Shown here: piece after piece, positions 561 to 23,472 of the stretch | Layout of the letters: each line of letters opens with the position of its first letter | Position numbering within the stretch: position 1 is the stretch's first letter | Origin: Acidimicrobiales bacterium | GTDB lineage: Bacteria; Actinomycetota; Acidimicrobiia; Acidimicrobiales; RAAP-2 | NCBI GenBank assembly: GCA_043782995.1 | Contig: JAYVZV010000009.1 | Span: 554 to 64,553 of the forward strand | Reading direction: 5' to 3' | Length of the DNA stretch: 64,000 bases | The notes under the pieces: generated by a model | Seen by the model: only the letters and a program-made list of their open reading frames with translations | What the model was told of the DNA's origin: nothing | Database searches by the model: none | Translations under genes and position numbers: made by a program

Positions 561-611
561 TCCAGCCTCCAGTGGAAGGTTGCGTTACTGTCGCGTCGGG
601 CCTCCGACACC
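561..611 (+). repeat. REP-like unit, copy 1 (CCTCCAGTG box, 20-nt spacer, GTCGG-GCCT-CCGAC hairpin, ACC)
   Basis: tccaGCCTCCAGTGgaaggttgcgttactgtcgcGTCGGGCCTCCGACACc. Lies between divergent gene starts. Confidence 0.8.
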
Positions 612-696
612 AGCAGAAGGAAATGCAATTTCCTCCGTTTGTCGTAGCTGGGAAGAAGTGCATTCAGCAACTTGAGGCCAATACTGGCTCTCCTGG

Positions 697-3510
697 ATGC
701 TCAGAGCACGAGAAAGTTCCATCTTCTACGATGCACCTATAGATACCCTGACCTTCCTGTTCACGGATATTGAGAAATCAACTGAACTCCTTCGTCGTGT
801 AGGCGGAGACGTCTACTCGAAAATCCTCGAACATCATCATCACCTCATACGTTCGAGCCTGCAGTCAAACAGTGGAGTTGAGCAAGGAACTCAGGGTGAC
901 TCATTCTTTGCAGTATTCACCTCACCAAGCGCTTGCGTCCAAGCGGCGGTGGAGGTGCAACGCGCGTTTGCCAGCAGCGAATGGCCCCTTGGTGAAAAGC
1001 CCCTAGTGCGCATGGGCATACATACAGGGGAAGTGGCAGAGTCGGCGACCGGCCTGGTCGGATATGAAGTCCATCGCGCCGCCAGGATTGGAGCGGTCTG
1101 TCACGGAGGTCAGGTTCTTCTGTCTTCGGCGTCGGCAGGGCTCGTGGCGGATATGTTGCCGGCGGGGGTCACGCTTCGCGACCTCGGCTCGCATCGACTG
1201 AAGGACTTAGGTCGCCCGGAAACTATTCTCCAGCTGGTCATTGAGGGTCTCAAGGATGATTTTCCCCCGTTGCGCTCGCTGGACAATCCAGAACTGGCCA
1301 ACAATCTGCCGGCGTCCTTGAGCCCTTTTATCGGGCGGGCAGACGAGCTCCTTGAGGTTCGGGCGCTCGTGACGAGGATGAGAATGGTTACGCTCATCGG
1401 CGCTGGGGGTTCAGGCAAGACCCGACTCGCTTTGCAGGTGGCGGCGGAGTTGCTCGACGGCAGCGGCGAGGGCGTATGGTTCGTCGACTTCTCTCCAATC
1501 AGCGACCCCGAACTAGTTCCCTCGATAGTGATCAGTTCGCTGCAATTGCGCCAGCAGCCAGACTGCTCGCCGGTCGACTCGCTACTGAAGACGCTGAGGG
1601 ACCAGAACGTCCTCATCATGCTCGACAACTGCGAGCACCTGGTCGATGCCGTCGCGAAACTTGCTGATCTCATTGGGCGGCACTGTCCTAGGGTCTCGCT
1701 GGTTGCTACGTCTCGCGAACCATTGGGTGTCGACGGGGAACAGGTGTACCTGGTTCGCACCCTCTCACTTCCGACCGAAGGCGTCGAAAGTGTTAAGGAT
1801 CTCGAAGGTTCAGATGCCGTCGAGTTGTTTGTGGCTCGAGCGCGGGGCCGTGATTCCACCTTCTGTTTAGAAGACGCAATTGCCCCGATAGTCGCCTCGA
1901 TTTGTCGACGCCTCGACGGCATCCCGTTGGCGATTGAGCTGGCTGCATCGAGATTGTCTTCGATGTCACTCGACGATCTGCACGAGCGCCTGGACCAGCG
2001 GTTCCACCTGCTTACAGGAGGAAGCCGGAGTGCGTTGCCTCGTCATCAGACTCTGGGAGCCATGGTCGCCTGGTCCTACGATCTGTTGATGGAGCCCGAA
2101 CAAGGAGTTCTTCGTCGCCTATCTGTGTTTGTCGGAGGTTTCGATCTGAAGGCCGCCGAAGCTGTCTGCGCCAGCGAAAATGTGCAACCTTTCGAGGTTA
2201 CTGATTTGTTGAGTTCACTGGTCAATAAGAGCCTCGTTGGTGCGGAGAGGTCGTCGACGTCGTTGCGCTACCGACTGCTCGAGACGATTCGCCAGTACGC
2301 GGCGGACCAGTTGATCCAGGTTGGCACGGAGATCGAGACTCTCGCCGCGAGGCGCTGCCACGCTGAGTACTTCCTCCGCCTGTGCGAGGAGGTCGCGCCG
2401 GAGCTGATTAGGGAGAATCAAGGACTCTGGATGAAGAAACTCGACTCAGAGTGGGACAACTTGCAAGCGACGTTCAATTATTTCTCGCGCGAAGGCGACG
2501 GGAGCGAGAAGATCCTGCGGATGGGGGTGTCCGCAAGCCCATTCTTCCTCACGCGACTGCACAAGATCCCGATCGGATTCATTCAAGCCGCGCTCAATAG
2601 TGACGCGGTTATTCCTACTCCCATGAGGGCACGGGCGTTGCTAACGCTCGGAGTACTGATTAGCTTGACCCAGGCGGGCGATCAACCAGAACAGACAGCT
2701 TTCGCGTTGTTGTCCGAAGCAGTGGAAATGGCGAGAGCTATCAATGATACTTCACTCCTTGTCGAGCTATGGCTCGCCAACAGCTCATTCCAACTTGGAT
2801 TCAATGAACTGATGCGCGGTTTCGCGCAGGAGTCAGTCGAAATTGCCAGAGACATCGGCGATGCGAGGTTACTGGGCCAAGCCTTGTTGACTTACGGTAT
2901 CACTCGACCCACTCCACAGGAAGGTCGAGGTTATCAGTTGGAGGCGTTGGCCAATCTGCGCCGGGCTGGGGATCTTCAAATGGTGTGCACTACCCTTTTC
3001 TACCTCTCAAACAGCGCTCTCTTCGAAGGGTTGCTCGAAGAAACTCTGGCTTTCCAGAAGGAGGCAACGGAAATTGCTGTGGAACTTGATTCCCCTTTCC
3101 ATAAAGAGTTGCTGTGGGGAGCAATCGGTGGGACCCTCTATCTGCTGGGAGAGGTGGTGGAAGCCGAGCGGTACAGTCGTCAGGCGCTCTTCAACTCGCG
3201 GCGAGTGGGTGCGCGATCGGACTCCATCTATTGGATCATTTTCGTTCTAGCGTGCTGCGCAACGAGCAAGGAGGATTATGTGCGAGGCGCTCAATTGGTT
3301 GGGGTGCACGAGGCGATAGAGCGTGAGCTTCCCGAGCCGTTGCGTGGGTTCTGGTCTCCGTTGGAAATCGAAATGCGCAGGCGAAATAACGAATGTTTGG
3401 CGGAAGCCCTCGGTGTTGCACAGTTCGAACGACTCAAGGGGATCGGCGGGGAACTGACTCTCGACCAAATGATCGATCTTGGCCTCGCCCGGATTCAAAT
3501 TATTCAATAG
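697..3510 (+). CDS. class III adenylate/guanylate cyclase domain fused to a STAND (AAA/NB-ARC-like) ATPase and TPR-like C-terminal repeats
   Basis: N-terminus LTFLFTDIEKSTELL...GDSFFAVF...GIHTGEV...EVHRAARI is a cyclase homology domain. Walker A is GAGGSGKTRLA. Long helical repeat tail. No LuxR-type HTH recognised at the C-terminus. Confidence 0.85.
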   Translation: MLRARESSIFYDAPIDTLTFLFTDIEKSTELLRRVGGDVYSKILEHHHHLIRSSLQSNSGVEQGTQGDSFFAVFTSPSACVQAAVEVQRAFASSEWPLGEKPLVRMGIHTGEVAESATGLVGYEVHRAARIGAVCHGGQVLLSSASAGLVADMLPAGVTLRDLGSHRLKDLGRPETILQLVIEGLKDDFPPLRSLDNPELANNLPASLSPFIGRADELLEVRALVTRMRMVTLIGAGGSGKTRLALQVAAELLDGSGEGVWFVDFSPISDPELVPSIVISSLQLRQQPDCSPVDSLLKTLRDQNVLIMLDNCEHLVDAVAKLADLIGRHCPRVSLVATSREPLGVDGEQVYLVRTLSLPTEGVESVKDLEGSDAVELFVARARGRDSTFCLEDAIAPIVASICRRLDGIPLAIELAASRLSSMSLDDLHERLDQRFHLLTGGSRSALPRHQTLGAMVAWSYDLLMEPEQGVLRRLSVFVGGFDLKAAEAVCASENVQPFEVTDLLSSLVNKSLVGAERSSTSLRYRLLETIRQYAADQLIQVGTEIETLAARRCHAEYFLRLCEEVAPELIRENQGLWMKKLDSEWDNLQATFNYFSREGDGSEKILRMGVSASPFFLTRLHKIPIGFIQAALNSDAVIPTPMRARALLTLGVLISLTQAGDQPEQTAFALLSEAVEMARAINDTSLLVELWLANSSFQLGFNELMRGFAQESVEIARDIGDARLLGQALLTYGITRPTPQEGRGYQLEALANLRRAGDLQMVCTTLFYLSNSALFEGLLEETLAFQKEATEIAVELDSPFHKELLWGAIGGTLYLLGEVVEAERYSRQALFNSRRVGARSDSIYWIIFVLACCATSKEDYVRGAQLVGVHEAIERELPEPLRGFWSPLEIEMRRRNNECLAEALGVAQFERLKGIGGELTLDQMIDLGLARIQIIQ

Positions 3511-3666
3511 TCTCCTTCTACGGTCATCGAACTGATACTTCGCTGCGCCAGACATTGGTTGATGTTGAGCCCGAAGACAGCGGCATCATGACGTCAATCG
3601 CCAGGGACTGGCAGCAGAACGATGACCTCGGGCCTCTGACAATCTTTAAGCCTTATCGGGTTGAAG

Positions 3667-3712
3667 TCGCCAAAGGTAGGTTGCATTCCTGTCACGTCGG
3701 GCCTCTGACGCC
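3667..3712 (+). repeat. REP-like unit, copy 2 (diverged)
   Basis: gtcgCCAAAGgtaggttgcattcctgtcacGTCGGGCCTCTGACGCC. Spacer is 20 nt. Intergenic, after the cyclase stop. Confidence 0.65.
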
Positions 3713-3749
3713 AGTGAGAGGATGGCTCCGAACAGTCTTGCAGTCAGGG

Positions 3750-4934
3750 ATGGGTATCCGGATCTATGAGCATCGGAGGTCGGCCGTTAAGTTTGGGAGA
3801 GTCACCGTAGGCTGCATTTCGCTCGCGATAGTGGTCGGCGTTGGCACGTTGATGCCGATTGCTCGTGTCGCGTCAGCCGTTGGCGCGACGTCGGTCACGC
3901 TGCCTTCCTACTTGAAAGCAACTCAGCCCGTGCAGGCATCGCGTGCCGGTTCGTCCTCGGCGATCTACGTGCTCTGGCAGCGGAGCGGCACCTGTACAAA
4001 TTGCTGGGTGCTCACCCGCACGACTTACGATTTTCGACCTCTCGTGCGCGTCACGACGCCACCGGACTCTCCGAATGCGAACGGTTCGCCGACTGGGACG
4101 CTGGCGTTCCTGGTCTTCGCTGACGCTCGTGATGGCATGGCCCTCTACCAATCGAGCGCTGGTCGTGACTCACTCTTCGTCACTCACGATGGAGCCGCAA
4201 CGTGGGTTCCCTGGCCAATGTCAAAGGGAGCGCAGATCATGGACCTGACGACTTCACCTACGGGGTTCTTCGCGACCGAGCGCGTGTGCGCGACCAGTTC
4301 ATTCAAGTGCGTTGACACCTTCCTGCTTCGCGCAAGCCCTCACGCCACACGTTGGACCATCACGCCAATTCCCGGTGCACAAAAGCTGCAGGGTGAAATG
4401 ATCAGTGTGGCCGCGTGGCGCCATCATGTTTGGCTCGCGGGGAACACGACGACCAAGACCTACGCATTCTTGGCCACTTCTTCTGACGGCGGCAGGACCT
4501 TTTCGACTCGCGGCGCTCAGGCTCTCATCAGTCTCTCGTCCTGCGGTCTCACCGCGTCATCCGAGACAGCCCTGTGGGCAGGATGCCGCGGAGGGATGGC
4601 GATCGACCTGATGCACAGTGCAGACGCCGGAGGAACGTGGACCCAGATTCCGACGCCGGCCCCGTTCATGGGTACTGGCGGAGGAATCTTGACCCCACTC
4701 TCTGGGTCGACTGCCTACCTCGACATGGGACTTGGAAAATTCCCCTTCTACTTCGTCGGCGGAAGCGGCCGCGCACTAACCGCACGGGGCAAGGCACCTC
4801 TCCAACTCTTCACATCTCTCGTGTTCGTCAGTCCGCGCCAGGGCTTGGCCCTCGGTCAAACGACGGAAGGGTCGAGTTTCTCGGCGGCGTTCACCAGTGA
4901 CGGCGGGCGTCATTGGACCCACGTCCATCCCTAG
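3750..4934 (+). CDS. secreted BNR/Asp-box repeat protein (sialidase / Ycf48-like beta-propeller)
   Basis: Four S/T-x-D-x-G-x-T-W/F boxes (THDGAATW, SSDGGRTFS, SADAGGTWT, TSDGGRHWT). Hydrophobic signal-like segment after the internal ATG at 3750. The upstream part of ORF 3393.. crosses a repeat unit and looks non-coding. Confidence 0.7.
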   Translation: MGIRIYEHRRSAVKFGRVTVGCISLAIVVGVGTLMPIARVASAVGATSVTLPSYLKATQPVQASRAGSSSAIYVLWQRSGTCTNCWVLTRTTYDFRPLVRVTTPPDSPNANGSPTGTLAFLVFADARDGMALYQSSAGRDSLFVTHDGAATWVPWPMSKGAQIMDLTTSPTGFFATERVCATSSFKCVDTFLLRASPHATRWTITPIPGAQKLQGEMISVAAWRHHVWLAGNTTTKTYAFLATSSDGGRTFSTRGAQALISLSSCGLTASSETALWAGCRGGMAIDLMHSADAGGTWTQIPTPAPFMGTGGGILTPLSGSTAYLDMGLGKFPFYFVGGSGRALTARGKAPLQLFTSLVFVSPRQGLALGQTTEGSSFSAAFTSDGGRHWTHVHP

Positions 4935-4948
4935 CCCCGACAGTCATC

Positions 4949-4983
4949 GGTAGATTCATTGTTGCATCCCGCCTCCGACACCC
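4949..4983 (+). repeat. REP-like unit, partial copy 3a (left hairpin arm lost)
   Basis: ggtagattcattgttgcATCCCGCCTCCGACACC. Confidence 0.5.
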
Positions 4984-4994
4984 GTCAACACAAA

Positions 4995-5052
4995 ATTGCA
5001 TCAAGCCTCCAATGCATGGTGGCAGAACTGTTGCGTCGGGCCTCCGACACCA
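4995..5052 (+). repeat. REP-like unit, copy 3b
   Basis: attgcatcaaGCCTCCAATGcatggtggcagaactgttgcGTCGGGCCTCCGACACca. Confidence 0.85.
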
Positions 5053-5086
5053 CAGGTTTGCAACCCTGGTTCAGTCCAACCTCTTG
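5037..5086 (+). repeat. 50-bp direct repeat, copy A (repeat-unit 3' end plus recombinase tail)
   Basis: 48 of 50 nt identical to 12593..12642. Confidence 0.9.
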
Positions 5087-5439
5087 CAACGTCACCAAAA
5101 ACGGTGGTGCGCCAACAACTTGAACCGTCAATCGGTCCGGGAAGATGTTGACCGAGTCCACGAGGTCATCGATCAGAAGTTAACGCTCGGCGGGACTCGC
5201 TTCCTCCCAGAACTCGTCGAGATTGAGGTCAGCGAGCAGTGCTGAAACTTGGTCGAACTTGCTCAATGCCTGCGTGCTGGTTCGCTGAACGAGTTCAACG
5301 GCTTCGACTTCAACTTGCAATCCCAATCGTTGCGTCGTGAGTCTGGTCGACTCGAGGGCGAAGCCATCTTGATCGATCTTGTCGGCATAGTAGAGATCGA
5401 GGAGCTTTCGTTCCTTCACCCTGAGTGAAGCGATCACTG

Positions 5440-6900
5440 AAGCCGCGCTGGGGCCCTTTGGGATGGGGCTGACGCGAAGATAGGCCTAACTCACGCAGCT
5501 GTGGGTTCCAAAGTCACCGTATAGCCCAAGTTTCGAAGTTGGTCGATGGCACGTCGTTTCGCTTTTTCGGGGTATCGCTTGGCGTAGAAGTCTGCACCGG
5601 GTTCGTTGTAGGGCTCTCCGGTCTGGAGCATGTTCCACGCCGTTATGAGCATGGCGTGTTCGATCGCCACCACCGCCTTGACGGGCCCTCGTCGCGAGGC
5701 GATTCGCCGATATTTGGCCGCGTAGTAGGTGCCGTGAGAGCGTGACGCGCTCAAGGCCGCAATCCCGAGAGCGCCCTTGAGGTAGGGGTTGCCCGGACGA
5801 GTACGCGTTGACTTGATCCGGCCCGCGGACTCGTTCGATCCGGGACACACTTCGGCCCGCGACGCCAAGTGGCCCGCGGTGAGGAACCTGCTCATGTCAG
5901 CACCGGTCTCGGCGATGATGACGTCAGCGACTCTCGTTGAGATCCCCGGGATCGTCGAAATCAGATCCCGGGCTGCTCGAAAAGGTTCCATCACCGCCCC
6001 GATGCGCGCCGTGATCTCGTCGGTCGCTCTGGCTCGCTGGTCGATGAGGTCCAATTGGATCTGCACCAGGAACGCGTGGTGTTCGCTGAAGCGACCGTTG
6101 AGTGCCTCAGTGAGCTCAGGAATCTTATTTCGTAGCCTGCCCTTGGCCATCTCGGCAAGAACAGACGGGTTGCGCTCGCCGGCCACGAGGGCGTCGAGAA
6201 TAATGCGAGACGAGACGCCGTTCATTGCCGTGGCGACCGACGAGAGCTTCACCCCGGTGTCCTCCATCAACTTCTCCAAGCGCTGGATCTCACGAGTGCG
6301 TTCACGAATGATGGTGGTGCGCGTGCGTGTGAGATCGCGAAGTTGGCGAATCGGCTCGGGTGGCACGAACGACGCCCGCACCAGACCGTGGGCGCCGAGC
6401 TGCGCCAACCACGCCGCGTCCGAGACGTCGGTCTTTCGACCGGGCAGATTCTTCACGTGTCGGGCATTGACGAGCATGACCTCGTAGGGCCCCTCCTCGA
6501 GCAGGTAGTAGAAGGGTTTCCAGTAGTCACTGGTCGCCTCCATCACGACCATCGTCACCCGCTCGGCGATGAGGTGTTCGCGCAGCGCCAGGATCTGGCT
6601 GGTCACCGCAGCCCACGTCGTCACCTTCGAGCTTGCTCTCGCTCGACCCGGTTCTTGAGTTCGCACGCAGACCATGACGTCTCTCTTGGAGATGTCCAGA
6701 CCCGCGCATCGGTAATGGACGATGTCCACGATGTCTCCCTTCCGTTGACTTTGTAGGTGTCCGGCCCGCGGAGAGCGAGATAATTCAGAAGTCTGACGCT
6801 CGTGCTCTAAGGCAACAGTCCACGGTTCTCGTGGTAGCCCTCCTCCACCATGCTGCTGAACAGGCTCATGGCACTACAGTCCCTTCGGTGTCTAACCGGA
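5440..6900 (-). mobile_element. IS110-family insertion sequence (ends not mapped; coordinates approximate)
   Basis: Intact transposase flanked by gene remnants on both sides. IS110 elements lack inverted repeats, so the ends cannot be read directly from a single copy. Confidence 0.5.
5491..6729 (-). CDS. IS110-family (DEDD) transposase
   Basis: 412 aa. N-terminus MDIVHYRCAGLDISKRDVMVCV, and C-terminal LISTIPGISTRVADVIIAETG helix-hairpin-helix region typical of IS110/IS116/IS902 transposases. GTG start preceded by AAGGGAGA. Confidence 0.9.
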   Translation of the reverse strand: MDIVHYRCAGLDISKRDVMVCVRTQEPGRARASSKVTTWAAVTSQILALREHLIAERVTMVVMEATSDYWKPFYYLLEEGPYEVMLVNARHVKNLPGRKTDVSDAAWLAQLGAHGLVRASFVPPEPIRQLRDLTRTRTTIIRERTREIQRLEKLMEDTGVKLSSVATAMNGVSSRIILDALVAGERNPSVLAEMAKGRLRNKIPELTEALNGRFSEHHAFLVQIQLDLIDQRARATDEITARIGAVMEPFRAARDLISTIPGISTRVADVIIAETGADMSRFLTAGHLASRAEVCPGSNESAGRIKSTRTRPGNPYLKGALGIAALSASRSHGTYYAAKYRRIASRRGPVKAVVAIEHAMLITAWNMLQTGEPYNEPGADFYAKRYPEKAKRRAIDQLRNLGYTVTLEPTAA

Positions 6901-7032
6901 CCGAACGTTTCGAATAGTACTGAGCGCGAGGACATTTGGCGAGTGGCAGATCACGTGAGTCCCGCACGAACTATCTTCTTTCCGCACGGCGAGCCAGCGG
7001 CGGGCTCTACGTTGCTGCTGACGATTCCCTTG

Positions 7033-7248
7033 TCACGTTGACAAGGAAACCATCAGCAGCCAATAACGGTGCGTAGTCAGCGCTCGCGTACCCACGGCGA
7101 TTGAGTCATTCGTCGGTCGCTGAGTTACCAAGACCGCGGTGCAACCAACGGCTCTACCAAGACTCAGATAGCGACGAAGGAGCCCGTTAGTATGAGCGCG
7201 TTGCTTCACGTCACCCGCTGCACCGATTTCGGCCCATTCATCAATCAC
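7033..7248 (-). pseudogene. FtsK/SpoIIIE-family (conjugative Tra-like) ATPase fragment
   Basis: MIDEWAEI...LLRRYLSLGRAVGCTAVLVTQRPTNDSI matches the Walker B to TQRP segment of FtsK-like translocases. Only about 70 codons are open. Confidence 0.5.
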
Positions 7249-7454
7249 CAGGACAATTCACGGATTTATGTTCGTAGAGCGGAGCGTCGCCGTTTGTGTA
7301 GTGGCCAAATGTTCGGCGCGCCACTGTATTTCCACGAGCAGGTCGTTGAGTAATGTGACATTCGCCCCAACTTCATTGCGTGGAACCTTGTCGCGTCGAC
7401 CCGACCCGCGGTCCGCCCGCTGTTGTAATTCGCCAGGGTGCGCCCACGCTCGGT

Positions 7455-8078
7455 CTAGGGCGAAGTGAAAAGTGCGCTGACGCTGCGTCGAAGAATGGAG
7501 CGGATCCGGGCCTTGTCGATGGCACTTGGCTCGACGGAAAGGTAGTCTACTTCCAAACCGGCAAGTAGTCCGAGGAGCACCTGTGCGTCGACCACTGGCA
7601 TCGGTGATCCCAGCCGGCCAGCCACATCGCTCAACTCTCGCCTCATTGGGATCTGCCACGAGCGCGATAGCGCCGCAAGGTTGGGCTCACGGGTTGCGCC
7701 GATGAGCAATTCGTACTCTGCGATCAACTGATTGCGATGGTCAGTGAGCCCGCCTATGAGAAACTTTGAGAGCTCATCAGCAAATTGGTGAGTCGAACGT
7801 CCGGGAGAGAGTTTGCGCGTAGCGGCAAGGACTCGATTGGTTTCACGTTCGGCGTGCAACTTGAAGGCTTCCGAAATTATGGCTGACTTCGAGGAGAAAT
7901 AGTAGGTCGTTGCACCAAGCGGAATGTCGGCCTCCAACGCGAGCGCCCTCATCGTCAGCTCGGAGAGGCCGTCTCGTGCGATGATCCGCAGGGCGGCGTC
8001 CAGGATTTCGATCTTCCTTTTCTTTCCGCGCTGGCTGAACTGGCGACCTACTTCCACGGCCGTAGGGGGGGCGTTCAC
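7455..8078 (-). CDS. TetR/AcrR family transcriptional regulator
   Basis: RKIEILDAALRIIARDGLSELTMRALALEADIPLGATTYYFSSK is an N-terminal TetR HTH. GTG start lies 2 nt after the SDR stop. Confidence 0.85.
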   Translation of the reverse strand: MNAPPTAVEVGRQFSQRGKKRKIEILDAALRIIARDGLSELTMRALALEADIPLGATTYYFSSKSAIISEAFKLHAERETNRVLAATRKLSPGRSTHQFADELSKFLIGGLTDHRNQLIAEYELLIGATREPNLAALSRSWQIPMRRELSDVAGRLGSPMPVVDAQVLLGLLAGLEVDYLSVEPSAIDKARIRSILRRSVSALFTSP

Positions 8079-8080
8079 CT

Positions 8081-8911
8081 TTACTCCACAATCTCTGCGG
8101 GCACGTGGATTCCGATCGTCTGGCCACCATCGACGACGATTTGCTGACCGGTGATCCAGGAGGCCGCCGGCGAGACGAGAAAACCCACTGCCGCGGCAAC
8201 GTCAGCCGGGACACCAAATCGACCGACCGGTATGTGGCGAAGATAATCGGGCCCATGCACCTGGTGCGTGATGAGGCTCTCGGTCATTCGGGTGGCTACT
8301 AAGCCGGGGGAGATGGCGTTGACGGTAATCGCGTCGGGAGCGAGCTCAATGGCCGCACTGCGAACGAGCCCGATGAGACCAGCCTTTGATGCGTTGTATG
8401 CGGTGAAGTTCGACTCGACGAAGAAGGCGTTGGTCGAGGCAATCACCACGATTCGCCCCCCTCGTCCAACCATTTGTTGCGCGGCCAGCTGAATGGTGTG
8501 GAACGCACCGGTGAGGTTAACCGAGATGACCTCGTCCCATTGTTCCTCGGTCATGTCGAGGAGGGGAGCACCGTGATCGACTCCCGCATTCGCCACGACC
8601 ATATCGAGCGCACCGAACCGGGCCACACATTCGTCGATGCTACTTGCCACGTCGCCTCGTAAGGAGACGTCGCTGACGAGATGGAACGCCCGTCCGGTTC
8701 CGAATCGGGCGCAGAGATCCTCGGCTACCTCGTCCCCGCCTGGCGATCTGGAGGTCATGCACACCGAGGTCCCCTTCTTCAAGAGGTACTCGACGATGCC
8801 CAGGCCGATTCCACGGGTACCACCGGTGACGACGGCCACCAAACCCTCAAGCGATTCTCCATCAGGAGGCATTGAGTCGGCGCCGGTATGGGTGGTTCGG
8901 TTCAAAAGCAT
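8081..8911 (-). CDS. SDR family oxidoreductase
   Basis: VAVVTGGTRGIG Rossmann motif and YNASKAG catalytic motif. ATG overlaps the upstream stop (TAATG). Confidence 0.85.
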   Translation of the reverse strand: MLLNRTTHTGADSMPPDGESLEGLVAVVTGGTRGIGLGIVEYLLKKGTSVCMTSRSPGGDEVAEDLCARFGTGRAFHLVSDVSLRGDVASSIDECVARFGALDMVVANAGVDHGAPLLDMTEEQWDEVISVNLTGAFHTIQLAAQQMVGRGGRIVVIASTNAFFVESNFTAYNASKAGLIGLVRSAAIELAPDAITVNAISPGLVATRMTESLITHQVHGPDYLRHIPVGRFGVPADVAAAVGFLVSPAASWITGQQIVVDGGQTIGIHVPAEIVE

Positions 8912-14110: not shown

Positions 14111-14120
14111 AAGCGGGGAT

Positions 14121-15252: not shown

Positions 15253-15486
15253 GAACCAGCATCGCTTAGAGAGGTCGACAATTTTCGATCATAGATTCGA
15301 TACGTCATGTCGTTGTCATCAAGGACCTGCGGCTCACCGGGAGTGGGAGAACGGCGTGAACAGTGGGTTCCAAATTGGGGCACCGCATTACTGCCATTCT
15401 GACTCAGGAAACGCACGAGCTGCTTCGCCAGTGCAGGCCGAAGGTATCTCAAACAACACGGAGAGGTCAACCTATACGATTGGCTC

Positions 15487-15973: not shown

Positions 15974-16022
15974 CAAGCCGCCAAGGTTTGGTTGCAGGAC
16001 TGTTGCTTCGGGCCTCCAACAC
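15974..16022 (+). repeat. REP-like unit, copy 8 (mosaic of the two subtypes)
   Basis: caaGCCGCCAAGGtttggttgcaggactgttgcTTCGGGCCTCCAACAC. Confidence 0.75.
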
Positions 16023-16053
16023 TAATGTGATACCGAAGTGGTATCATGAAACC

Positions 16054-16637: not shown

Positions 16638-16700
16638 GTTTCCTGCGACAGGGGCCTAGAGCCGTCCCAACGATCACGCGAGGTCTCATCTCAGTTCCAA

Positions 16701-16745
16701 GGCTCGAATGAATGGTTGCACTTCTGTGGTGTCGGGCCTTCGATT
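16701..16745 (+). repeat. REP-like unit, copy 9 (diverged)
   Basis: ggctCGAATGaatggttgcacttctgtggtGTCGGGCCTTCGATtc. Confidence 0.6.
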
Positions 16746-16922
16746 CGAAATCAATCCTTACCATTGGACCGTCTCACATTGCCGGGGATATTCAAGAATC
16801 CAGTTGCCTTGACTACGCATCGTTTCGGATATTCTCGCGTAACGAAACTATTTTCGATCGCCATACGGCGAATGGATCTCGTACGGTCTCTGAGAAGGAG
16901 AGAGGCGTGGGCGCCCTTCTGC

Positions 16923-17252
16923 CTACTCCAACTTGGGGAAAACGGCAACGCAACTGATTTCAACAATTGCATCGGGATAAATCAGTTCACTCACTCCCAC
17001 GGCAGTCCAAGCGGGATATGGATCATTTAAGAATTCGGAAGCGACTTTGAGTACGGTTTCAGTTTGGATTTGAAGACCGACATGGTAGGAGTTGATTTCA
17101 ACCACATTGGACCAATCCACACCTGCTTCCGCCAAGGTGTCGGCAATGTTGTTAAATACCTGGCGAATTTGCGCTTCCGGGTTGGCTGGCAAGGACCCGT
17201 CACCGGTCTCGCCCGTATGTCCGGTGAGTCGCAATACGCCGCCGGCGCTCAC
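16923..17252 (-). CDS. RidA/YjgF/L-PSP family protein (the true 5' end is probably upstream, near 17345)
   Basis: GVLRLTGHTGE...QIRQVFNNIADTLAEAG...VEINSYHV...PAWTAVGVSEL. The open frame and an AAGGAGAGG SD lie upstream of the first canonical start. Confidence 0.75.
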   Translation of the reverse strand: MSAGGVLRLTGHTGETGDGSLPANPEAQIRQVFNNIADTLAEAGVDWSNVVEINSYHVGLQIQTETVLKVASEFLNDPYPAWTAVGVSELIYPDAIVEISCVAVFPKLE

Positions 17253-17588
17253 GGCCGCTGGAATGTGGGTCTGCGCATAAAAATCAGCCCATATTTGAGG
17301 GACAATTACCGAATTTGGTGCTCCGTTGTCACTTGGTGTCTTGATGACCGGCCTCTCCTTTTGCGTTCGAGTTGAACCGTAAGGAATGTATCAAGGTCTT
17401 TGAGCCCTGGCTGAGCTCTGGTCTCGATTCAATCTCATAAATTTTGCTTCCTACTGGACTGGGCAATATTCAATGCACGCCGAAGGTAGAGCCTTGCCAC
17501 CTGTCAATTCTCCAGGCGGAGATTATTGACGTCAGCCCTCAGATAACTATGAAATCTTTGAAGAGCTAAATTCGATGCTTGCTACTTC

Positions 17589-18191
17589 CTACTGCATAAT
17601 CTCGGACCTCAAGGGTCGTGACGGATAGCTTCCCGACACGCCCGGGACCAACGGATTGACTTCGAATCCGCCACCGCAATAGGTCCAAGCTTGAAAGCCC
17701 TTTGGCACCGGTATCGACGCCATTCCGGTCAGTGATGTTACCGAGACCGTCAATTTGTCGGCATTGATGCACTTCGACATCACATCACTTCCGAAGATCC
17801 AAAAGGACGCGACTCGTCCGGACAAGAGTCGAATCGAAGGTGTCCGTCGACCGGGAGCGACTCCCATTTGGTCGTTGCCATTACGTCCCTTGAAGTCCCA
17901 TGTCTTCGTAGGGAGGCGCTTGTCCTTTAAGTAGACAGCCACAATCGGATATCCGCTTATCACGCACGGGAAAGCCCCATTGTTTCGGATCCAGAACAGG
18001 TCACCGAATGACCCTGCCAGGCCGCCAGTCGTCCCACGCCAGACAACGCTCAGTTGATCGGAGCCGCATTTCAGGCTGGATTGGGACATTGATGATGCTC
18101 CGGACGGGCTGCTACCTATCAGAGTGAGTGAACTCGCCACCACGATCAGTCCTAGCCATAGACCGCCGCTCTTCGAGATGGCTTGGTACAT
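17589..18191 (-). CDS. secreted DUF4232-like protein
   Basis: Internal ATG gives MYQAISKSGGLWLGLIVVASSLTLIG (signal/TM), then CGSDQLSVVWRGTTGGLAGSFGDLFWIRNNGAFPCVISGYP. Confidence 0.6.
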   Translation of the reverse strand: MYQAISKSGGLWLGLIVVASSLTLIGSSPSGASSMSQSSLKCGSDQLSVVWRGTTGGLAGSFGDLFWIRNNGAFPCVISGYPIVAVYLKDKRLPTKTWDFKGRNGNDQMGVAPGRRTPSIRLLSGRVASFWIFGSDVMSKCINADKLTVSVTSLTGMASIPVPKGFQAWTYCGGGFEVNPLVPGVSGSYPSRPLRSEIMQ

Positions 18192-18413
18192 GAGTGCAAA
18201 TCTATCTACAAGTGCTTCTACGGAGTTGTCGCCCCCGGTGTCCGGGTGTCGAGTCACGGAGACCACGGTTTCACCCGCCAGTCGGAGACTGTGGACGTCC
18301 CCGCAATGGACTCGCCTTCCGCGCTTGCCCTCCAGGACCTTTTCGCAGTTCACCCGTCGTCGTAACGCCTCGTGAGTGGGCGGCCGTCGTTCCAAGGATG
18401 TCGATGAATGTGA

Positions 18414-19043
18414 CTACTTGTCGTCGGCCCAGTCGAATTCGTAGGATATCCAGTTGGAGTCACTAAATTCCATGGCGATTCCAGAAGCCTCCACCGAGAA
18501 CGAGCCGACGCCGCAGTCACCCGATTGCCATATGAAGCCTTCCTCAAGGACAATCTTTGCGTTGTGTGGCTCGCCAGTCACCGGGTTCTTGAACGTACTC
18601 CCCGTTCCTTGGCCGATTCCTTCGGCCTTCAGGGTGACATCAAGGCCCGACCCTTCCAAGGTGATGCGTGCCTTGACGAGCCCCGCAATTTCGAAGGTTC
18701 CCCCGATGAGGGCCCACGGCATCCCGCCCAGTTGACCGGTGTAGATCTGGGCGAGTGCATCGACCTGCTCGTCAGTGGTCTCGGGCTCAACGATGAAGAC
18801 TGCCCGTCCACCACCATCGTGGATGGCCTTGGGCCAGTCAAAGACGCCGATTGCCTTGACACCAGTCAAGTCGACTTCGCCGCAGAAGCCTTCGTCAATG
18901 AAATTCCCTACATACGCCTTACAACTGCCGTCAGAAGAGCTCGGGAATCCCGAAAAGTTGCAGGTGCAACCAGGAGCGCAGTTGCAGAATTCATAGCCGC
19001 GGCCTCGCAACTGCCATTTTATGGATGTCTGGGTTGTTGTCAT
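18414..19043 (-). CDS. DUF1326-like protein
   Basis: MTTTQTSIKWQLRGRGYEFCNCAPGCTCNF... is the Cys-rich N-terminus characteristic of DUF1326. Internal ATG at 19043. Lies 11 nt downstream of its membrane partner. Confidence 0.7.
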   Translation of the reverse strand: MTTTQTSIKWQLRGRGYEFCNCAPGCTCNFSGFPSSSDGSCKAYVGNFIDEGFCGEVDLTGVKAIGVFDWPKAIHDGGGRAVFIVEPETTDEQVDALAQIYTGQLGGMPWALIGGTFEIAGLVKARITLEGSGLDVTLKAEGIGQGTGSTFKNPVTGEPHNAKIVLEEGFIWQSGDCGVGSFSVEASGIAMEFSDSNWISYEFDWADDK

Positions 19044-19054
19044 GTTGGATCCTT

Positions 19055-19843
19055 TCAGGTGATGCTGCTCATGAAGCTCGGATAAACGAGGAGGACAAGA
19101 CCAAGAAGAGCAAACAGTCCGGCGACGATGCGCGCAATCGCCTCTCCCGTGGCCGCTACTTTTTCCACGAAGATGAGCGCCGCGAGCGCGATCATCCAGA
19201 CGAGATTCATCGTTCCGAGGGCCACCAAGACCGACATCAGTGCCCAACAGCATCCAAGGCACACGAATCCGTGCGTCACTCCGGCACGCATGGCCCCGCG
19301 CACGCTACGCAGGTCACTCTTTTGGCGCACGAAGAAGGACATGGGCGTCCGACAGTGGCGCAGACACGCAGTCTTGAACGGAGAGACCTGATACACCGCA
19401 GCAACCACGAACACACCTCCGGCTACACGGGCGGCCCACGGACTGTTGTCGGCAATGGGTCCACGCAGAGATCGCCACGCGACGTAGGCCGGGATGGCGA
19501 CGGTCGACCAGATCAGGAGGTATCCGGCAACGAACGTCGTAGTCGGAGCGGCCAGACCGCGCGTCGATGCGCGTCGAAACAGGAGCACGACTGGAACGAC
19601 GGTGGGAAACATCATGGCGCTCATCATCGCCACCCATCCACCAACGAACGCCACGAGGGAGATCGACATCGGGGTCATGGACACACTCATCGTGTGGCTC
19701 GTCGTCATGTTGCCGGCCATATGGACCGACCACCACCAACCGGCAGCGGCGAGCGCAATCAGGACTCCGGGCACGAGCGAACTCTCGGTTAAAGATCGCC
19801 GCACCGGCGCCATGCGACTCACCGAACCCGCGAAATCGCCCAT
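19055..19843 (-). CDS. DUF2182-like integral membrane protein (putative metal-binding)
   Basis: Multiple TM segments and VTHGFVCLGCCWALMSVLVALG. Start chosen at the ATG preceded by GGGGGGA; longer starts up to 20011 are possible. Confidence 0.65.
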   Translation of the reverse strand: MGDFAGSVSRMAPVRRSLTESSLVPGVLIALAAAGWWWSVHMAGNMTTSHTMSVSMTPMSISLVAFVGGWVAMMSAMMFPTVVPVVLLFRRASTRGLAAPTTTFVAGYLLIWSTVAIPAYVAWRSLRGPIADNSPWAARVAGGVFVVAAVYQVSPFKTACLRHCRTPMSFFVRQKSDLRSVRGAMRAGVTHGFVCLGCCWALMSVLVALGTMNLVWMIALAALIFVEKVAATGEAIARIVAGLFALLGLVLLVYPSFMSSIT

Positions 19844-20151
19844 CGTCCCCCCGGTCAACGTGCTATCAAGTGAGGAATATACTTCTTTCAATCCCTTCGT
19901 GTCAAGAGAAATCACTCTGTACTGCATTGCAGCGATTACCCACCGGCGCGGCGGGAACCAGTTCGGGTCGCCCAGGGAAGTCCCGTGAGCAAGGGGATCA
20001 TTGGACGCCAATTGAGCGTGGTGGTCGTTGCACGAGGAACTAGGAATTGTCCAGAACTACGTTGTACTTGTTGACATAGGAACTATTGATCATTAGTTTC
20101 AGGCCAGGTGTCATTTCGCAATTTGCGAGTCACTGACAATGAGGGGGAAGA

Positions 20152-20934
20152 ATGACGAAACCAATTGTGCGAAGGTGGAATAGGGCAACCGGAGTAACGA
20201 AGCGGCTTGTACGAATCGCGTCGGTCATAGGGTTGCTGGCAACATTTGGCGGACTCGCCAACCCGGTGATGAGTTCGGCAAGCAGTACGCCGAGCGGCCA
20301 AGTGATGATCGGCAGTACCACTCTGACGATCCCCAGCAACGGAGGATATCCATACTTCACCGGCGGCGGCGGCTCAGTTGAGCCAGCGTACAACGACGCC
20401 AACGGGTCGCTGCTCTACCTACTCACTCCCACGAAGACGAAGGTCCAACTAAGCAGCAAGATCGTCCAGGATTCGACTGACATCGCTTTCCCCTTCCCGC
20501 ACCCGGTCAACGTGGCGCCACTCTTCTTGCCGGTCTACCCAACCAGTTCGGGTATTGATCCGGCGACGCTCAACTGCGCGCACGTCCCAGCAGACAACTG
20601 TCCGGACCACGGCCCAGCGGTCTCCGATGCGGTCCAATTCGGCATCGATCCCGGTATCTATGGTGCAGGCGTGATCGGACACGATCACCTGATCGGGGTG
20701 GCGGCAACGAAGGGTGATTGGAACATCATCTGGGAACCCGTGCTCGTCCTGTTCGCGCCGACGGCGGCCGGTGCCGCAGCAGCGGCGTCCCAGCACATCA
20801 CGACGCTCCAGCAACTCACCGACGACTTGAACGCGGGACTGGTCTTTGAGGTGCCACTCCCGACCCTCGATTTCCATTGCGGGATCGTCTCGGCGTCACT
20901 GTACGCACATGGGACTCCAGCCCCAACCGTGTGA
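20152..20934 (+). CDS. secreted hypothetical protein
   Basis: ATG preceded by GAGGGGGAAGA. Basic N-terminus plus hydrophobic segment (RLVRIASVIGLLATFGGLANPVMSSASS). No family recognised. Confidence 0.6.
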   Translation: MTKPIVRRWNRATGVTKRLVRIASVIGLLATFGGLANPVMSSASSTPSGQVMIGSTTLTIPSNGGYPYFTGGGGSVEPAYNDANGSLLYLLTPTKTKVQLSSKIVQDSTDIAFPFPHPVNVAPLFLPVYPTSSGIDPATLNCAHVPADNCPDHGPAVSDAVQFGIDPGIYGAGVIGHDHLIGVAATKGDWNIIWEPVLVLFAPTAAGAAAAASQHITTLQQLTDDLNAGLVFEVPLPTLDFHCGIVSASLYAHGTPAPTV

Positions 20935-21074
20935 TCGGTCGGGCTCTTTACGACTTGGATCTCCACGTGGAGTCGGCTCTCGGAAACGATTGGCGATTCC
21001 ACGTGGAGATCAATCTCGACCTGCGGGGAAGTTCCATGTCGTCCAGTCGAGGTCATTTAGCAGCCACATTCTCA

Positions 21075-21268
21075 CAGCCAGTGCAAGGTGGCAAAATAGT
21101 CACATCGGGCCTCCGACACCAGTTAGATCGCAATTGCATCGAGCCTCCAGTGCAAATGTGCAGAACTGTCAAGCCGGGCCTCCGACACGATTCCTAAGGT
21201 TCAAGCCGCCAGTGGGTGTTATCAGAATGAGTGCGTCGGACCTCCGACACCAGACCGCCTCCGACACC
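21075..21268 (+). repeat. tandem cluster of three REP-like units plus a 14-nt partial (copies 10a 21075-21120, 10b 21132-21188, 10c 21202-21252, partial 21255-21268)
   Basis: Each unit ends ...TCGGGCCTCCGACAC / ...GTCGGACCTCCGACACC. 10a and 10b are the TGCAG-type spacer, 10c the TATCAGAATGA-type. Confidence 0.85.
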
Positions 21269-21439
21269 AATTTTTGACCGCCAATCCTTAGGGTGTGGTG
21301 ACCGATCTGCAATGAGGCTTTCGCCGCAGTTCTCACATCGCTCAGGTAGCTGAATCGCGACGGGTTTCCGGGAGACTCTCTACTAAACCCAGTCCGCATC
21401 ACCACAGCAGTTTCGCGAGAATTGAAGTAGCGTCCACTC

Positions 21440-22231
21440 ATGTCTGCGGGAGATCTTGAGAGCGCGTTGGCCTTGAGTAGGTCGAGCGCTGGGACCTGGA
21501 GTGCCCACGCCGATCCGAACTACGAATCTGTAAACGGAATGTTTGGCGGTTGGACCGCTGCGATGTTGTTGCGAGCGGTCTGCGCCGAGGCCGATAGTAA
21601 GGCCGCGCCGTCTGCTCTCACCGTTAACTTTGTCCACAAGATCGAGCCGGGCAGCGACCTCTTGATTAGAACGTGGCGCGTTGGTGGAGGTCGATCTGTG
21701 GGCTATTGGCACTCTGAGTTCACGACTGCCGATGTCACGCTGGCGGTTGCCTCGGTTGTACTCACCGAACGACGCGAAACGGACGGGCACCTTGAAGTCA
21801 AGATGCCAGACGCCCCCGATCCCGCCACGCTAAATGCGATACACGCAGCGCCCGGACCGCATGGCGAACGAGTTTTCGATCGTCCAATCTTTGGGCTTCC
21901 TCCCTTTAATCAGGAGAGCACGTACTCGACCTCTTGGGTGCGTGAGACGAGCGGACGATCGGTCGACCATGCCCAACTTGCGTTACTCGCCGATCACCGC
22001 GCGCCGCGGTCGTTCTTCTGGAGTGACGGCCCCCGGCCGAGCTCCACACTCACACTCTCGGTCTACTTCCACGCCACCGAAAGCGAGCTGGCCGCCGTCG
22101 GGGACGACGAGATCCTAAGTGAGGCCTTCGGCACCCGAGGCGCACACTCGACTTCAGAGGAGCATCTTCGGCTGTGGAGCCGTCGGGGAGCACTGCTAGC
22201 TACGTCAGTACAGATGGCCTGGTTTAGATGA
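21440..22231 (+). CDS. acyl-CoA thioesterase (TesB-like double hot-dog) family protein
   Basis: NGMFGGWTAAMLLRAV... N-terminal hot-dog signature. 263 aa. Confidence 0.7.
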   Translation: MSAGDLESALALSRSSAGTWSAHADPNYESVNGMFGGWTAAMLLRAVCAEADSKAAPSALTVNFVHKIEPGSDLLIRTWRVGGGRSVGYWHSEFTTADVTLAVASVVLTERRETDGHLEVKMPDAPDPATLNAIHAAPGPHGERVFDRPIFGLPPFNQESTYSTSWVRETSGRSVDHAQLALLADHRAPRSFFWSDGPRPSSTLTLSVYFHATESELAAVGDDEILSEAFGTRGAHSTSEEHLRLWSRRGALLATSVQMAWFR

Positions 22232-22298
22232 CCGGAATTAACCCGTGATCCTTTGCACTCAGCCTCTGGGCTGACGGTCCGAAACGAGACCTAAACGG

Positions 22299-22348
22299 CC
22301 AGCCGCCAGTGGGTGGTATCAGAATGATTGTGTCGGGCCTCCGACGCC
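22299..22348 (+). repeat. REP-like unit, copy 11 (TATCAGAATGA subtype)
   Basis: ccaGCCGCCAGTGggtggtatcagaatgattgtGTCGGGCCTCCGACGCc. Confidence 0.8.
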
Positions 22349-22604
22349 AGCCTCAGAGCCAACAGCTAATTCGTGATGCTAGAGAAGGCGAGTCGGGGCA
22401 CCAACAGGACTGGTCCGTCCGGTGCCAGAGCTTGAAAGCAAAATATTCTCGTTGAACCTTCGCCGATGAGCAAAAGAGGATCGTCGAAAGTCTGTGCTCA
22501 GTCGGTATTATTGCGAATCGCCCATTCCCAATGTCAATCGCCCATTGTCAATGTCTTTGGGCAATGCTATGTTTCCGATGAAAATATCAAAGGGAGATTT
22601 CGAG

Positions 22605-22910
22605 ATGTGGGCACAACTGATCACAATGCGTTTGAAACCAGGTATGGACAATGAATTGGTGAGGTTGACTGAGATGTTGAAGGCAGCCGAACAACCAGGT
22701 TCCGGCCTCCTTCGCTCGACGATGATGAGGGACCAGAATGATCCCAGCCAGGTCTACACGCTGGTCGTCTTTGAAAACGAAGAGAAAGCTCGCGAACGTG
22801 AAAATGACTCACTGCGTCAAGCAGCCTTGAAGAACGTCAGGGCGCTCATGGTTGAGTTCTTCGACGGCCCCCCAGAATTTGTTGACTTGATGGTTGTCGC
22901 CGACAACTGA
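22605..22910 (+). CDS. ABM/Dabb-like (antibiotic biosynthesis monooxygenase fold) small protein
   Basis: ATG preceded by AAAGGGAGA. MWAQLITMRLKPGMDNE...VYTLVVFENEEKARE. Confidence 0.55.
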   Translation: MWAQLITMRLKPGMDNELVRLTEMLKAAEQPGSGLLRSTMMRDQNDPSQVYTLVVFENEEKARERENDSLRQAALKNVRALMVEFFDGPPEFVDLMVVADN

Positions 22911-23472
22911 CCTCGGACGCGCGGCCGTGGAGTATGGGCCGAGTTGGACCAGGGAATTCGAAGCCTGCCGCAAGGCGCCAATGCCTAATTCTCAGCATTG
23001 TTTCGTCGAGTTTCCGACACCAACCTCAGTAATGTCCAACCACCTAGAGCGGCGGCGACCACACAATCAAACGCCAGTCAGGGTCCCATTAGATCGTGCA
23101 GGTTGGCCCGCAGAAGTGCAGAAGATAATGTTCGACGAATGTCCGTGACTCTTCGACCGTTTGCCCTCTCCAGCTTTCCCGGCACGATTCAGGAATTTTG
23201 TACATCGGCTTGCCGACACCAACAATCTTTGAACTTTTAGTCAATTTCAATCTGTAGAATATTCGGGTCGAAGTTCGGCACACTTGGTGGTGCCGTTGGT
23301 CGAGAAATAGCGTGAACTGAACAGGTAACTCTCTTCGCCGGAACCACTAAATTGATCGTCTGCGTCTTTTGCGGCGTCTAAGTCGAATCATTCGAGAACC
23401 GAGGTGACTTCGCTGTAGCGGACCGCGGAGTTTCCATTGGAGGATGTAGTGTTTGCCACCCATACGTAGGAG

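Follow-up and report, generated by a model that had tools for sequence, protein, structure and literature searches.

A co-oriented 49-nt repeat and the cassettes it bounds

The stretch of DNA analysed here, hereafter the window, comprises 64,000 nucleotides of a contig from an Acidimicrobiales bacterium (JAYVZV010000009.1, positions 554 to 64,553; assembly GCA_043782995.1). It harbours a 49-nt repeat unit in 13 full and about five partial copies. All of them are on the plus strand, from 564 to 23022, and a degenerate trace follows at 26.7 kb. The units separate small gene cassettes, and we describe them together with the large serine recombinase (LSR) and the tRNA-Leu(GAG) gene with which they are associated. 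The unit consensus reads AGYCGCCAGTG-CAA-GGTTGCA-GAA-CTGT-TGC-GTCGGGCC/TCCGACACCA, the slash marking here and below the approximate position of the crossover.

The family stands out in several searches of the window. The core GTCGGGCCTCCGAC, with up to two mismatches, occurs 16 times for 2.05 occurrences expected, a count that none of 100 shuffled sequences reaches, and 12 of the 16 matches lie on the plus strand between 595 and 22345. A repeat search yielded a 14-copy family and longer sub-families with a recurrent 69-nt spacing. A profile built from 148 non-redundant units gives plus-strand matches that start at 561, 3594, 3664, 4959 (partial), 5001, 14420 (partial), 15205, 15973, 16698, 21077, 21139, 21201, 22299 and 22971, followed by a degenerate match at 26662-26695 (E 0.002); beyond that copy it detects no unit in the orientation of the array in the window. 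Its only minus-strand matches (5044-5067 and 12601-12623) are mirror-image arms next to a recombinase remnant. The coordinates listed in an earlier note on this sequence were correct throughout and its copies are real, but it overlooked the copy at 3594-3644, and its copy at 14404 is merely a right-hand fragment. The spacer of exactly 20 nt that it described is recovered by a strict regular expression in six copies; the others share the same alignment register, and the length is exact where the boxes are canonical. That the repeats are confined to the first 23 kb is essentially right, except for the degenerate copy at 26662-26701 and for the start of the array, which lies about 3 kb upstream of the window.

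An alignment of 194 non-redundant units shows sharp boundaries at positions -48 and 0 (49 nt), with flanks devoid of information. Each unit consists of a 39-nt, element-specific left arm (AGYCGCCAGTG..GGTTGCA..CTGT..GTCGGG), a central CC and a 10-nt right half, TCCGACACCA, which is the acceptor 3' strand of tRNA-Leu(GAG) plus ACCA. The 3' box of the unit, GTCGGGCCTCCGACACCA, matches the 3' end of the tRNA-Leu gene at 16 of 18 positions. The 5' box is mostly GYCGCC, with a G in 72% of the units where the window copies have a T. The sole inverted repeat in the consensus is 5 bp long, and this GC-rich stem is followed by ACCA. Two CCUCC motifs per unit, as noted earlier, are indeed found within this window, but the second CCTCC is not conserved across the 194 units.

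Unit 1 (564-612, crossover at about 602/603) is the right end, or P arm, of a cassette with Rep-like and LSR genes that begins at the tRNA-Leu gene upstream of the window. The next cassette (603-3634) encodes a protein with adenylate/guanylate cyclase, NACHT/STAND NTPase and TPR regions (697-3510) and has homologues in the arrays of loci L043 and L012; it ends at the diverged unit 2 (3596-3644), which forms a 69-nt doublet with unit 3 (3665-3713). A 404-aa protein with no assigned function (3720-4934) occupies the cassette at 3704-4973; it represents the most recurrent cargo family, found in 11 loci, and is followed by a partial unit (4949-4983; profile E 0.03) with the tRNA-type core ATCCCGCC/TCCGACACCC. 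Unit 5 (5004-5052), the closest to the consensus, is followed by a mirror image of the left arm, a P' arm at 5043-5069. This arm lies within a truncated, minus-strand LSR gene (5039-5476; aa 326-471, 53-55% identical to intact LSRs), whose C-terminus abuts the core of unit 5.

Farther along the plus strand, a partial unit consisting of core and right half only (14420-14441) closes a large rearranged cassette (5043-14431). The next three units close cassettes for an HTH protein (unit 15206-15254; gene 14472-15140), a glyoxalase (unit 15976-16024; gene 15487-15876) and an RHH antitoxin with a Fic/Doc toxin (unit 16700-16748). A multi-gene cassette (16739-21111) encoding RidA, DUF4232, DUF1326 and PpoB2 proteins and a 260-aa open reading frame (ORF) is closed by the unit at 21073-21121. 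Two mini-cassettes without ORFs follow, one of 69 nt bounded by the unit at 21142-21190 and one of 62 nt bounded by a unit of the GGTATCA spacer subtype (21204-21252), with an extra right-half fragment at 21257-21272. Another GGTATCA unit (22301-22349) closes an acyl-CoA thioesterase cassette (21440-22231), and the last clear unit (22974-23022), whose core has diverged to GTCGAGTT, closes an ABM monooxygenase cassette (22494-22910). Beyond it lie a trace (23203-23225) made of CCGACACCA and then ACAATCT, the start of the P' arm of a second LSR subtype, and the degenerate unit (26662-26701), which belongs to an older, low-GC part of the island in synteny with L066. The GC content of the window shifts at about 30 kb, from 0.56-0.60 to 0.63-0.70.

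The array starts at a tRNA-Leu gene next to an LSR gene

By looking up the first gene of the window, we found a public 170-kb contig (L001) that extends it upstream, window position 1 being L001 9305. On this contig, the array begins at a tRNA-Leu(GAG) gene (L001 6189-6275) preceded by conserved core genes (rapZ, cofD, gap, pgk, tpi, secG and an SBP gene). At its 3' end, the tRNA gene reads ...GTCCCGCC/TCCGACACCA within ...GGGTTCAAGTCCCGCCTCCGACACCA. On the opposite strand lies an intact LSR gene (L001 6238-7674; 478 aa, with the Pfam domains Resolvase, Recombinase and Zn_ribbon_recom), whose ORF runs across the tRNA 3' end and terminates with ...VVSEAGLEPARP and the stop codon. A gene for a small Rep-like protein (PF23343), a DUF4232 gene and unit 1 of the window come next. 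The LSR remnant at 5039-5476 is 53% identical to this LSR (E 2e-40) and stands in the same geometry to unit 5, although it is cut by an IS110 element.

The insertions thus lie at the 3' end of a conserved gene and are flanked by direct repeats: the tRNA gene ends in ...CC/TCCGACACCA, and each unit repeats TCCGACACCA to the right of the crossover. In two metagenome-assembled genomes (MAGs), the tRNA-Leu(GAG) gene ends in GACACT rather than GACACCA (L038 1085-1169; L050 7758-7842), which indicates that the last encoded bases of the tRNA, including CCA, depend on the first cassette. The acceptor 3' strand and ACCA are supplied by whichever cassette stands first.

Distribution across Acidimicrobiales

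An exact-pattern scan of one genome per species, in which loci were read as 8-kb tiles of MAGs, returned 74 loci, 73 of them with units. The remaining one, in a Lachnospiraceae MAG (L019), was dismissed as the single match expected by chance. Nearly all unit-bearing loci are in MAGs labelled Acidimicrobiales or Acidimicrobiaceae, from peat, fen and soil, and those in differently labelled MAGs are probably mis-binned. Three loci labelled Acidobacteria (L016, L023 and L065) and one labelled Saccharibacteria (L027) contain cassettes 82-86% identical to those of Acidimicrobiaceae MAGs; most likely, they are mis-binned low-GC variable regions.

A profile of the window units identified 323 copies, including those of the window and of six duplicate loci (L001-L006). 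They are co-oriented within each locus, with one exception, and found only in arrays. The spacing between units has a median of 771 nt (n=232), with 40 tight doublets of 61-78 nt and almost no values between 100 and 250 nt. Several genomes carry at least two arrays, 100-450 kb apart.

In 10 loci, a tRNA-Leu(GAG) gene in the same orientation forms the 5' head of the array. The second type of head is a pseudo-tRNA fragment, GTGCGGGTTCACGTCGGGCC/TCCGACACCA, that closes a conserved 5.7-kb block of core genes. At this second landing site (L007 6600-6725; L059 5800-5925), the 5' half of a tRNA-Leu T-arm is fused to a unit core. Neither ARAGORN nor Rfam calls it, and in L119, L130-L132, L141 and L151 it is occupied by an LSR.

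Homology between shared cassettes ends within the core of the unit

Segments between units are common to different MAGs at 80-97% identity while having different neighbours. For instance, the RHH/Fic-Doc cassette of the window is also found in L079, L047 and L027 at 82-91% identity, in other surroundings. The arrays thus consist of mobile-type cassettes, each bounded by a site, whose order differs between MAGs.

Junctions between shared and unshared DNA reveal where the cassettes are joined. When pairs share the upstream cassette, their units match through GTCGGGCC and diverge thereafter, as in GGGCC/ACGGTCGTGA versus GGGCC/TCCGACACTT. When they share the downstream cassette, the left arms differ, and rare variants of the right half (TCCGACGTCA, TCCGACACTT and TTCnAnTCGA) travel with that cassette. 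In a larger, threshold-based set of such junctions, with 16 pairs of the first kind and 19 of the second, homology switches between positions -14 and -9, inside GGGCC/T, which is the centre of the 14-bp palindrome GTCGG-GCCT-CCGAC, and this interval is nearly invariant. It follows that the two arms of the 'hairpin' described earlier belong to different cassettes. From these alignments, the hairpin is a predicted recombination core, and strand exchange would most likely occur at the central CC.

The left arm is mirrored at the end of LSR genes

Of 11 LSR genes or remnants in the arrays, ten lie on the strand opposite to the units, and their C-terminal ends fall on a unit core or on the end of the tRNA; no unit was detected near the eleventh (L032). 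We extended this analysis to metagenome loci with LSR homologues (44-87% identity), looking for the core around the 3' end of the gene, from about 80 nt before it to 40 nt past it. A T[CT]CGAC core was found in 65 of 72 evaluable loci. The left arms at these 65 loci belong to a tRNA-Leu gene (21), a tRNA-Leu fragment at a contig edge (8), a unit (13) or a unit-like or pseudo-tRNA variant (23). Relatives in IMG/VR show the same LSR arrangement, with L084 bounded by a tRNA-like and a unit-like site 5.6 kb apart.

The DNA on the other side of the core, within the LSR gene, resembles the left arm in inverted orientation. Thus, the reverse-complemented right arm at window position 5052 is AGGGTTGCAAACCTGTGGTGTCGG, for a left-arm consensus of AAGGTTGCAGAACTGTTGCGTCGG, and such mirror arms match the left arm of the unit at 14-18 of 22 positions. 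When scored with a left-arm matrix, reverse-complemented right arms adjacent to LSR genes reach 4.8-20.1, as compared with a mean of -17.6 (sd 6.9) for random sequences, only 0.07% of which reach 5. In the window and in 11 metagenome loci, the unit profile matches the minus strand exactly on the P' arm. This symmetry is limited to LSR-bearing junctions. The starts of cargo-only cassettes have no hidden mirror half-site, their scores equalling those of shuffled sequences, and their junctions conserve only 10 nt on the right. As the left arm is mirrored in the LSR gene 3' end, a circularised LSR element would have a palindromic attP of about 55-60 bp around CC. LSR attP sites are typically built as an imperfect inverted repeat of some 50 bp with a dinucleotide at its centre. 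This mirroring appears to tie the unit specifically to the LSR.

Measured up to their own closing unit, cassettes with an LSR gene have a median length of 3.5 kb (n=21). In 31 of 80 metagenome loci, the LSR has a Rep homologue at its side. Together, these features point to a compact Rep-LSR element as the autonomous member of the system. In the two-gene module, the Rep-like protein (PF23343, of the ORF2/G2P type) is encoded directly upstream of the LSR (L001 6238-8331; L081 1040-3621); HVN and YxxKY motifs are seen in it by eye, and related contigs are classed as viral in IMG/VR. The autonomous element may be an integrative rolling-circle replicon. As for the LSR, it scores 92-99 bits (E around 1e-27) against the NCBIfam models of CcrB, CcrA and CcrC, far below their cut-offs of 700-900, and is therefore not a Ccr orthologue.

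Proposed mechanism and alternative explanations

The crossover mapping, the LSR adjacency and the mirror arms support one of the roles that had been put forward for the repeats, namely that of a recombinase target. The earlier note had missed the tie to the tRNA 3' end, the serine recombinase and the cassette character of the genes in between. We think it probable that the units are LSR attachment sites and that the cassettes between them have built up through site-specific accretion at the tRNA-Leu(GAG) gene 3' end. From the anatomy of the site, the structure of the arrays, the crossover interval and the position of the LSR genes, we infer that the LSR acts on the units, cutting exactly at CC, and that the cargo is mobilised in cis. 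A Rep-LSR element would integrate by attP x attB recombination into the tRNA-Leu 3' end, a pseudo-tRNA or a unit, thereby regenerating the tRNA 3' end and shifting older material downstream. Each internal junction would be of the attR type, with a left arm (P arm), CC and the start of the next cassette. The short cargo cassettes (median 0.77 kb) have only the left arm, at their 3' end, and no recombinase. Most likely, they would move by co-excision with an adjacent LSR element that uses a more distal unit as attR, and they would stay behind when this element later excises alone.

Several points weigh against this proposal. Contigs of this population with identical Fic and glyoxalase cargo proteins all show the same cassette order, and a search for circular contigs, among 80 from metagenomes and those from IMG/VR, found none. 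Whereas canonical LSRs need two recognisable half-sites, conservation on the right is limited to 10 nt at most junctions, and cargo cassettes would thus be unable to form a full attP on their own. Apart from Ccr, LSRs do not typically use attL- or attR-type junctions as targets for integration. The 5' box (-48 to -38) lies farther out than a typical 25-bp LSR half-site reaches, has no mirror image in P' and does not follow from the proposed scheme. A few units combine a tRNA-type core (GTCCCGCC) with a unit-type left arm, which a single crossover at CC does not account for. Finally, the 8-kb MAG tiles leave room for a second recombinase encoded elsewhere.

It is tempting to speculate on a stronger form of the same idea, in which the LSR acts in trans from Rep-LSR elements to capture and excise single-gene cassettes equipped with the 39-nt arm and TCCGACACCA. 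The tRNA-Leu 3' end would then play the part of 'attI' in a serine-recombinase analogue of integrons, and the arrays would represent a shuffleable reservoir. We regard this version as possible but distinctly less likely than accretion with mobilisation in cis.

Conversely, the cassettes might be decayed LSR elements and the units leftover attR sites without function, in which case the cargo would never move alone or in cis. In favour of this view, LSR remnants and P' arms occur frequently, ACAATC or another P'-type start comes after about 10% of the units, the array is stable in the population sampled, and similar decay is found in tycheposons and in ssrA islands. Nevertheless, LSR-free cargo cassettes are 90-97% identical between species-level MAGs, with homology that ends at a unit core on both sides and with different neighbours. 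Moreover, the 39-nt left arm is strongly conserved over about 200 non-redundant copies between flanks that hold no information, which argues for continuing selection on the site. Passive scarring is therefore an unlikely explanation. The notion that the units are simple tRNA 3' fragments left by ordinary prophage integrations is insufficient, as 39 of the 49 conserved nucleotides do not derive from the tRNA, which has CCCG where the core has GGGC.

A different recombinase encoded elsewhere, be it of the integron type, another tyrosine recombinase or an HUH enzyme, might act on the units, with the LSR elements merely sharing the tRNA-Leu target. The array does resemble a sedentary chromosomal integron: its cassettes hold single genes, each with the site on its 3' side, and the cargo includes many GNAT, APH, toxin-antitoxin, glyoxalase and DinB genes. 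In addition, the conserved part of the site lies almost wholly on one side of the crossover, as in attC, and a Rep/HUH-like gene accompanies the LSR. Yet, in the 8-kb tiles read, no tyrosine recombinase or Phage_integrase is found among the 25 most frequent Pfam families of 150 array ORFs, nor at the array heads, where the neighbours are core genes (secG, SBP), tRNA and LSR. The unit has no R''-L''/L'-R' palindrome like that of attC and its fold shows no covariation, and the left arm is mirrored inside the ends of LSR genes. Taken together, these features make another enzyme quite improbable. By-eye inspection of the unit consensus likewise led us to reject an attC site, as it has neither RYYYAAC/GTTRRRY cores nor a whole-site palindrome. 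A role of Rep as an HUH-type enzyme at the hairpin is not supported either, since the crossover lies at the centre of the palindrome and the site is mirrored in the LSR gene; Rep might be involved in replication.

The units might be transcribed RNA elements, such as terminators, mRNA-stabilising 3' hairpins, intercistronic structures, tRNA-like 3' tags or anti-Shine-Dalgarno sponges. Many of them follow a stop codon, at a median distance of about 58 nt, their GC-rich stem and ACCA resemble a tRNA acceptor end, and CCTCC motifs occur in the window. However, the 148 units lend no covariational support to either of the hairpins proposed earlier: 86.6% of cells are paired versus 86.2% after shuffling, with one compensatory change in the GTCGG/CCGAC stem. 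At gathering threshold, Rfam has no match in the window, and its matches in 18 array loci are limited to true tRNAs and one Ms_AS-4 match. Tabulating gene orientation, with the longest ORF as a proxy for the gene here as for the stop distances, gave 64 genes on the same strand as the units and 48 on the opposite one, a weak bias but no consistent direction. As, in addition, the two sides of the stem originate from different cassettes, the stem is not followed by a T-run and the second CCTCC is a local feature, an RNA function is hardly credible. The same is true of a REP- or MITE-like repeat spreading on its own, which would be short, intergenic and multi-copy with a small inverted repeat, as are these units, and might fit with the presence in the arrays of IS110-family elements, often targeted to REP or attC sequences: the units are never dispersed but are found only in co-oriented arrays at fixed chromosomal heads (tRNA-Leu or the pseudo-tRNA site), they have neither terminal inverted repeats nor target duplications, and their left and right arms segregate with different flanking DNA, so that the unit is not a self-contained insert.

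Cargo and neighbouring features

The cargo between the units of the window comprises a cyclase-NACHT STAND NTPase, HTH, glyoxalase, RHH/Fic-Doc, RidA, DUF4232, DUF1326, PpoB2, thioesterase and ABM monooxygenase proteins. Among the 150 array ORFs analysed with Pfam, GNAT, DUF4232, APH, hydrolase, methyltransferase, DinB and TetR families dominate, together with IS110 transposases. The product of the gene at 697-3510 (937 aa) combines an N-terminal adenylate/guanylate cyclase, a NACHT/NB-ARC STAND NTPase and TPR repeats, an architecture reminiscent of defence proteins.

ORF-less mini-cassettes of 61-78 nt are found in the window at 3635-3703, 4974-5042 and 21112-21242, and the 40 doublets elsewhere are of the same kind. 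Two conserved types can be distinguished: one is 69 nt long, with the linker RTCAGR...TCAA; the other, of 67 nt, has a non-tRNA-like right arm, RCAGAnCRGA-ACCCACACGGACTAACCnA. In L022, an actinobacterial small RNA, Ms_AS-4, is predicted within the array (3879-3960, plus strand; 58.7 bits for a gathering score of 50).

An IS110-family, RNA-guided transposase is encoded on the minus strand at 5491-6729 (NCBIfam NF033542, 234 bits). It interrupts the LSR remnant as a secondary insertion and stands outside the system. IS110 transposases recur in the arrays (three of 150 ORFs), and the copy in L033 (457-1903) lies 24 nt from a unit. Their presence recalls the IS1111-attC elements of integrons.

A stretch of 50 nt with the core and P' arm is duplicated in the window, at 5037-5086 and 12593-12642 on the plus strand, with 96% identity. 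At the second copy, which is a rearrangement scar, the left arm is missing, and an IS3 OrfA pseudogene interrupted by in-frame stops (about 12350-12590) lies directly alongside. The 5.0-14.4 kb 'cassette', which contains the IS110 transposase, a TetR regulator, an SDR, an aminotransferase, a permease and the IS3 pseudogene, is thus a rearranged composite.

The low-GC region continues for about 7 kb beyond the last clear unit (23000-30000), with genes for an acetyl-CoA hydrolase, an esterase, an O-methyltransferase and an SDR. The esterase and methyltransferase genes are syntenic with L066, and in L045, L054 and L071 the acetyl-CoA hydrolase gene forms a true cassette. The region thus resembles a set of old, fixed cassettes.

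Significance

Integrons, which are based on a tyrosine recombinase, are the textbook system for the capture of single genes, and we know of none in Actinomycetota. Acidimicrobiales are an abundant lineage of peat and soil, and their arrays are stocked like chromosomal integrons while being tied to an LSR and a tRNA gene. If the proposed mechanism holds true, gene capture in cassette arrays arose at least twice, with unrelated recombinase chemistries, and the accretion model developed for SCC (staphylococcal cassette chromosome) and ssrA islands reaches down to single-gene cassettes. It would also provide an explanation and an annotation for hypervariable, low-GC regions of MAGs that are hard to bin. 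Furthermore, a compact LSR family with a 49-nt site and a tRNA-Leu landing pad might serve genome engineering. Should the LSR capture cassettes in trans, the arrays would represent a standing stock of genes for adaptation and defence, in a lineage of high-GC Gram-positive bacteria devoid of integrons.

Comparison with known systems

The likeness to sedentary chromosomal integrons is extensive. In both, the arrays are long and co-oriented, and most cassettes hold a single gene and have the site at one end, while some have no ORF. Both also have GNAT, toxin-antitoxin, glyoxalase, DinB and APH genes as cargo, IS110 insertions, and cassettes shared across species in different orders. In contrast, we found no IntI here; the associated recombinase is of the serine type, and the site lacks the R''/L''-L'/R' architecture and folded-strand signature of attC. 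The platform is a tRNA gene rather than an attI site with a Pc promoter, and gene orientation is inconsistent. By membership, the system is not an integron.

In SCC and SCCmec elements, LSRs drive insertion at the 3' end of a conserved gene, rlmH, giving rise to composite tandem arrays with direct repeats. Experiments have shown that tandem SCC-like cassettes are mobilised by Ccr recombinases, those without ccr genes moving by means of a neighbour's Ccr (PMC11470126). The arrays described here likewise contain LSR-linked cassettes at the 3' end of a conserved gene, in tandem between direct repeats. Unlike SCC, they involve one recombinase gene and no ccrA/ccrB pair, and the target is a tRNA gene, not rlmH; the cassettes are 10-50 times smaller and far more numerous.

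Tycheposons are tRNA-adjacent islands with partial-tRNA repeats and fragmented integrases, in which new arrivals push older elements deeper, and a minority of them use LSRs (Hackl et al., 10.1101/2020.12.28.424599). Nevertheless, their repeats are plain partial-tRNA sequences, and they are multi-kb elements with replication and cargo modules and mostly tyrosine integrases. Dense arrays of sub-kb cassettes with a dedicated, non-tRNA arm were not described there.

The closest published system is that of the Dehalococcoides ssrA islands, which lie in tandem downstream of the tmRNA gene and are separated by 20-bp repeats of its 3' end (McMurdie et al. 2011, PMC3146451). Their CcrB-like LSR, DsiB, is encoded on the reverse strand at the left edge, its ORF overlapping attL; about half of the islands have no recombinase and were proposed to be mobilised in cis by accretion, the distal material being older and fixed (PMC3146451). 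Both systems thus share a reverse-strand LSR at the left edge that overlaps attL, as well as members without recombinase. They differ in their targets, tRNA-Leu(GAG) rather than ssrA, and in their hosts, Acidimicrobiales rather than Chloroflexi. The repeat of Dehalococcoides is a 20-bp copy of the ssrA end, whereas 39 nt of the 49-nt repeat described here are element-specific. The arrays of Acidimicrobiales contain at least 15 mostly single-gene cassettes with a median size of 0.77 kb in place of multi-gene islands, and the module consists of LSR and Rep genes, as opposed to the six-gene dsiB/dsiA module. A further difference is the presence of two or more array heads in several genomes. Our search of the literature for this system returned no description of it. 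The principle of accretion was already known from ssrA islands and SCC; what is new here is a miniaturised, integron-like and LSR-associated cassette array.

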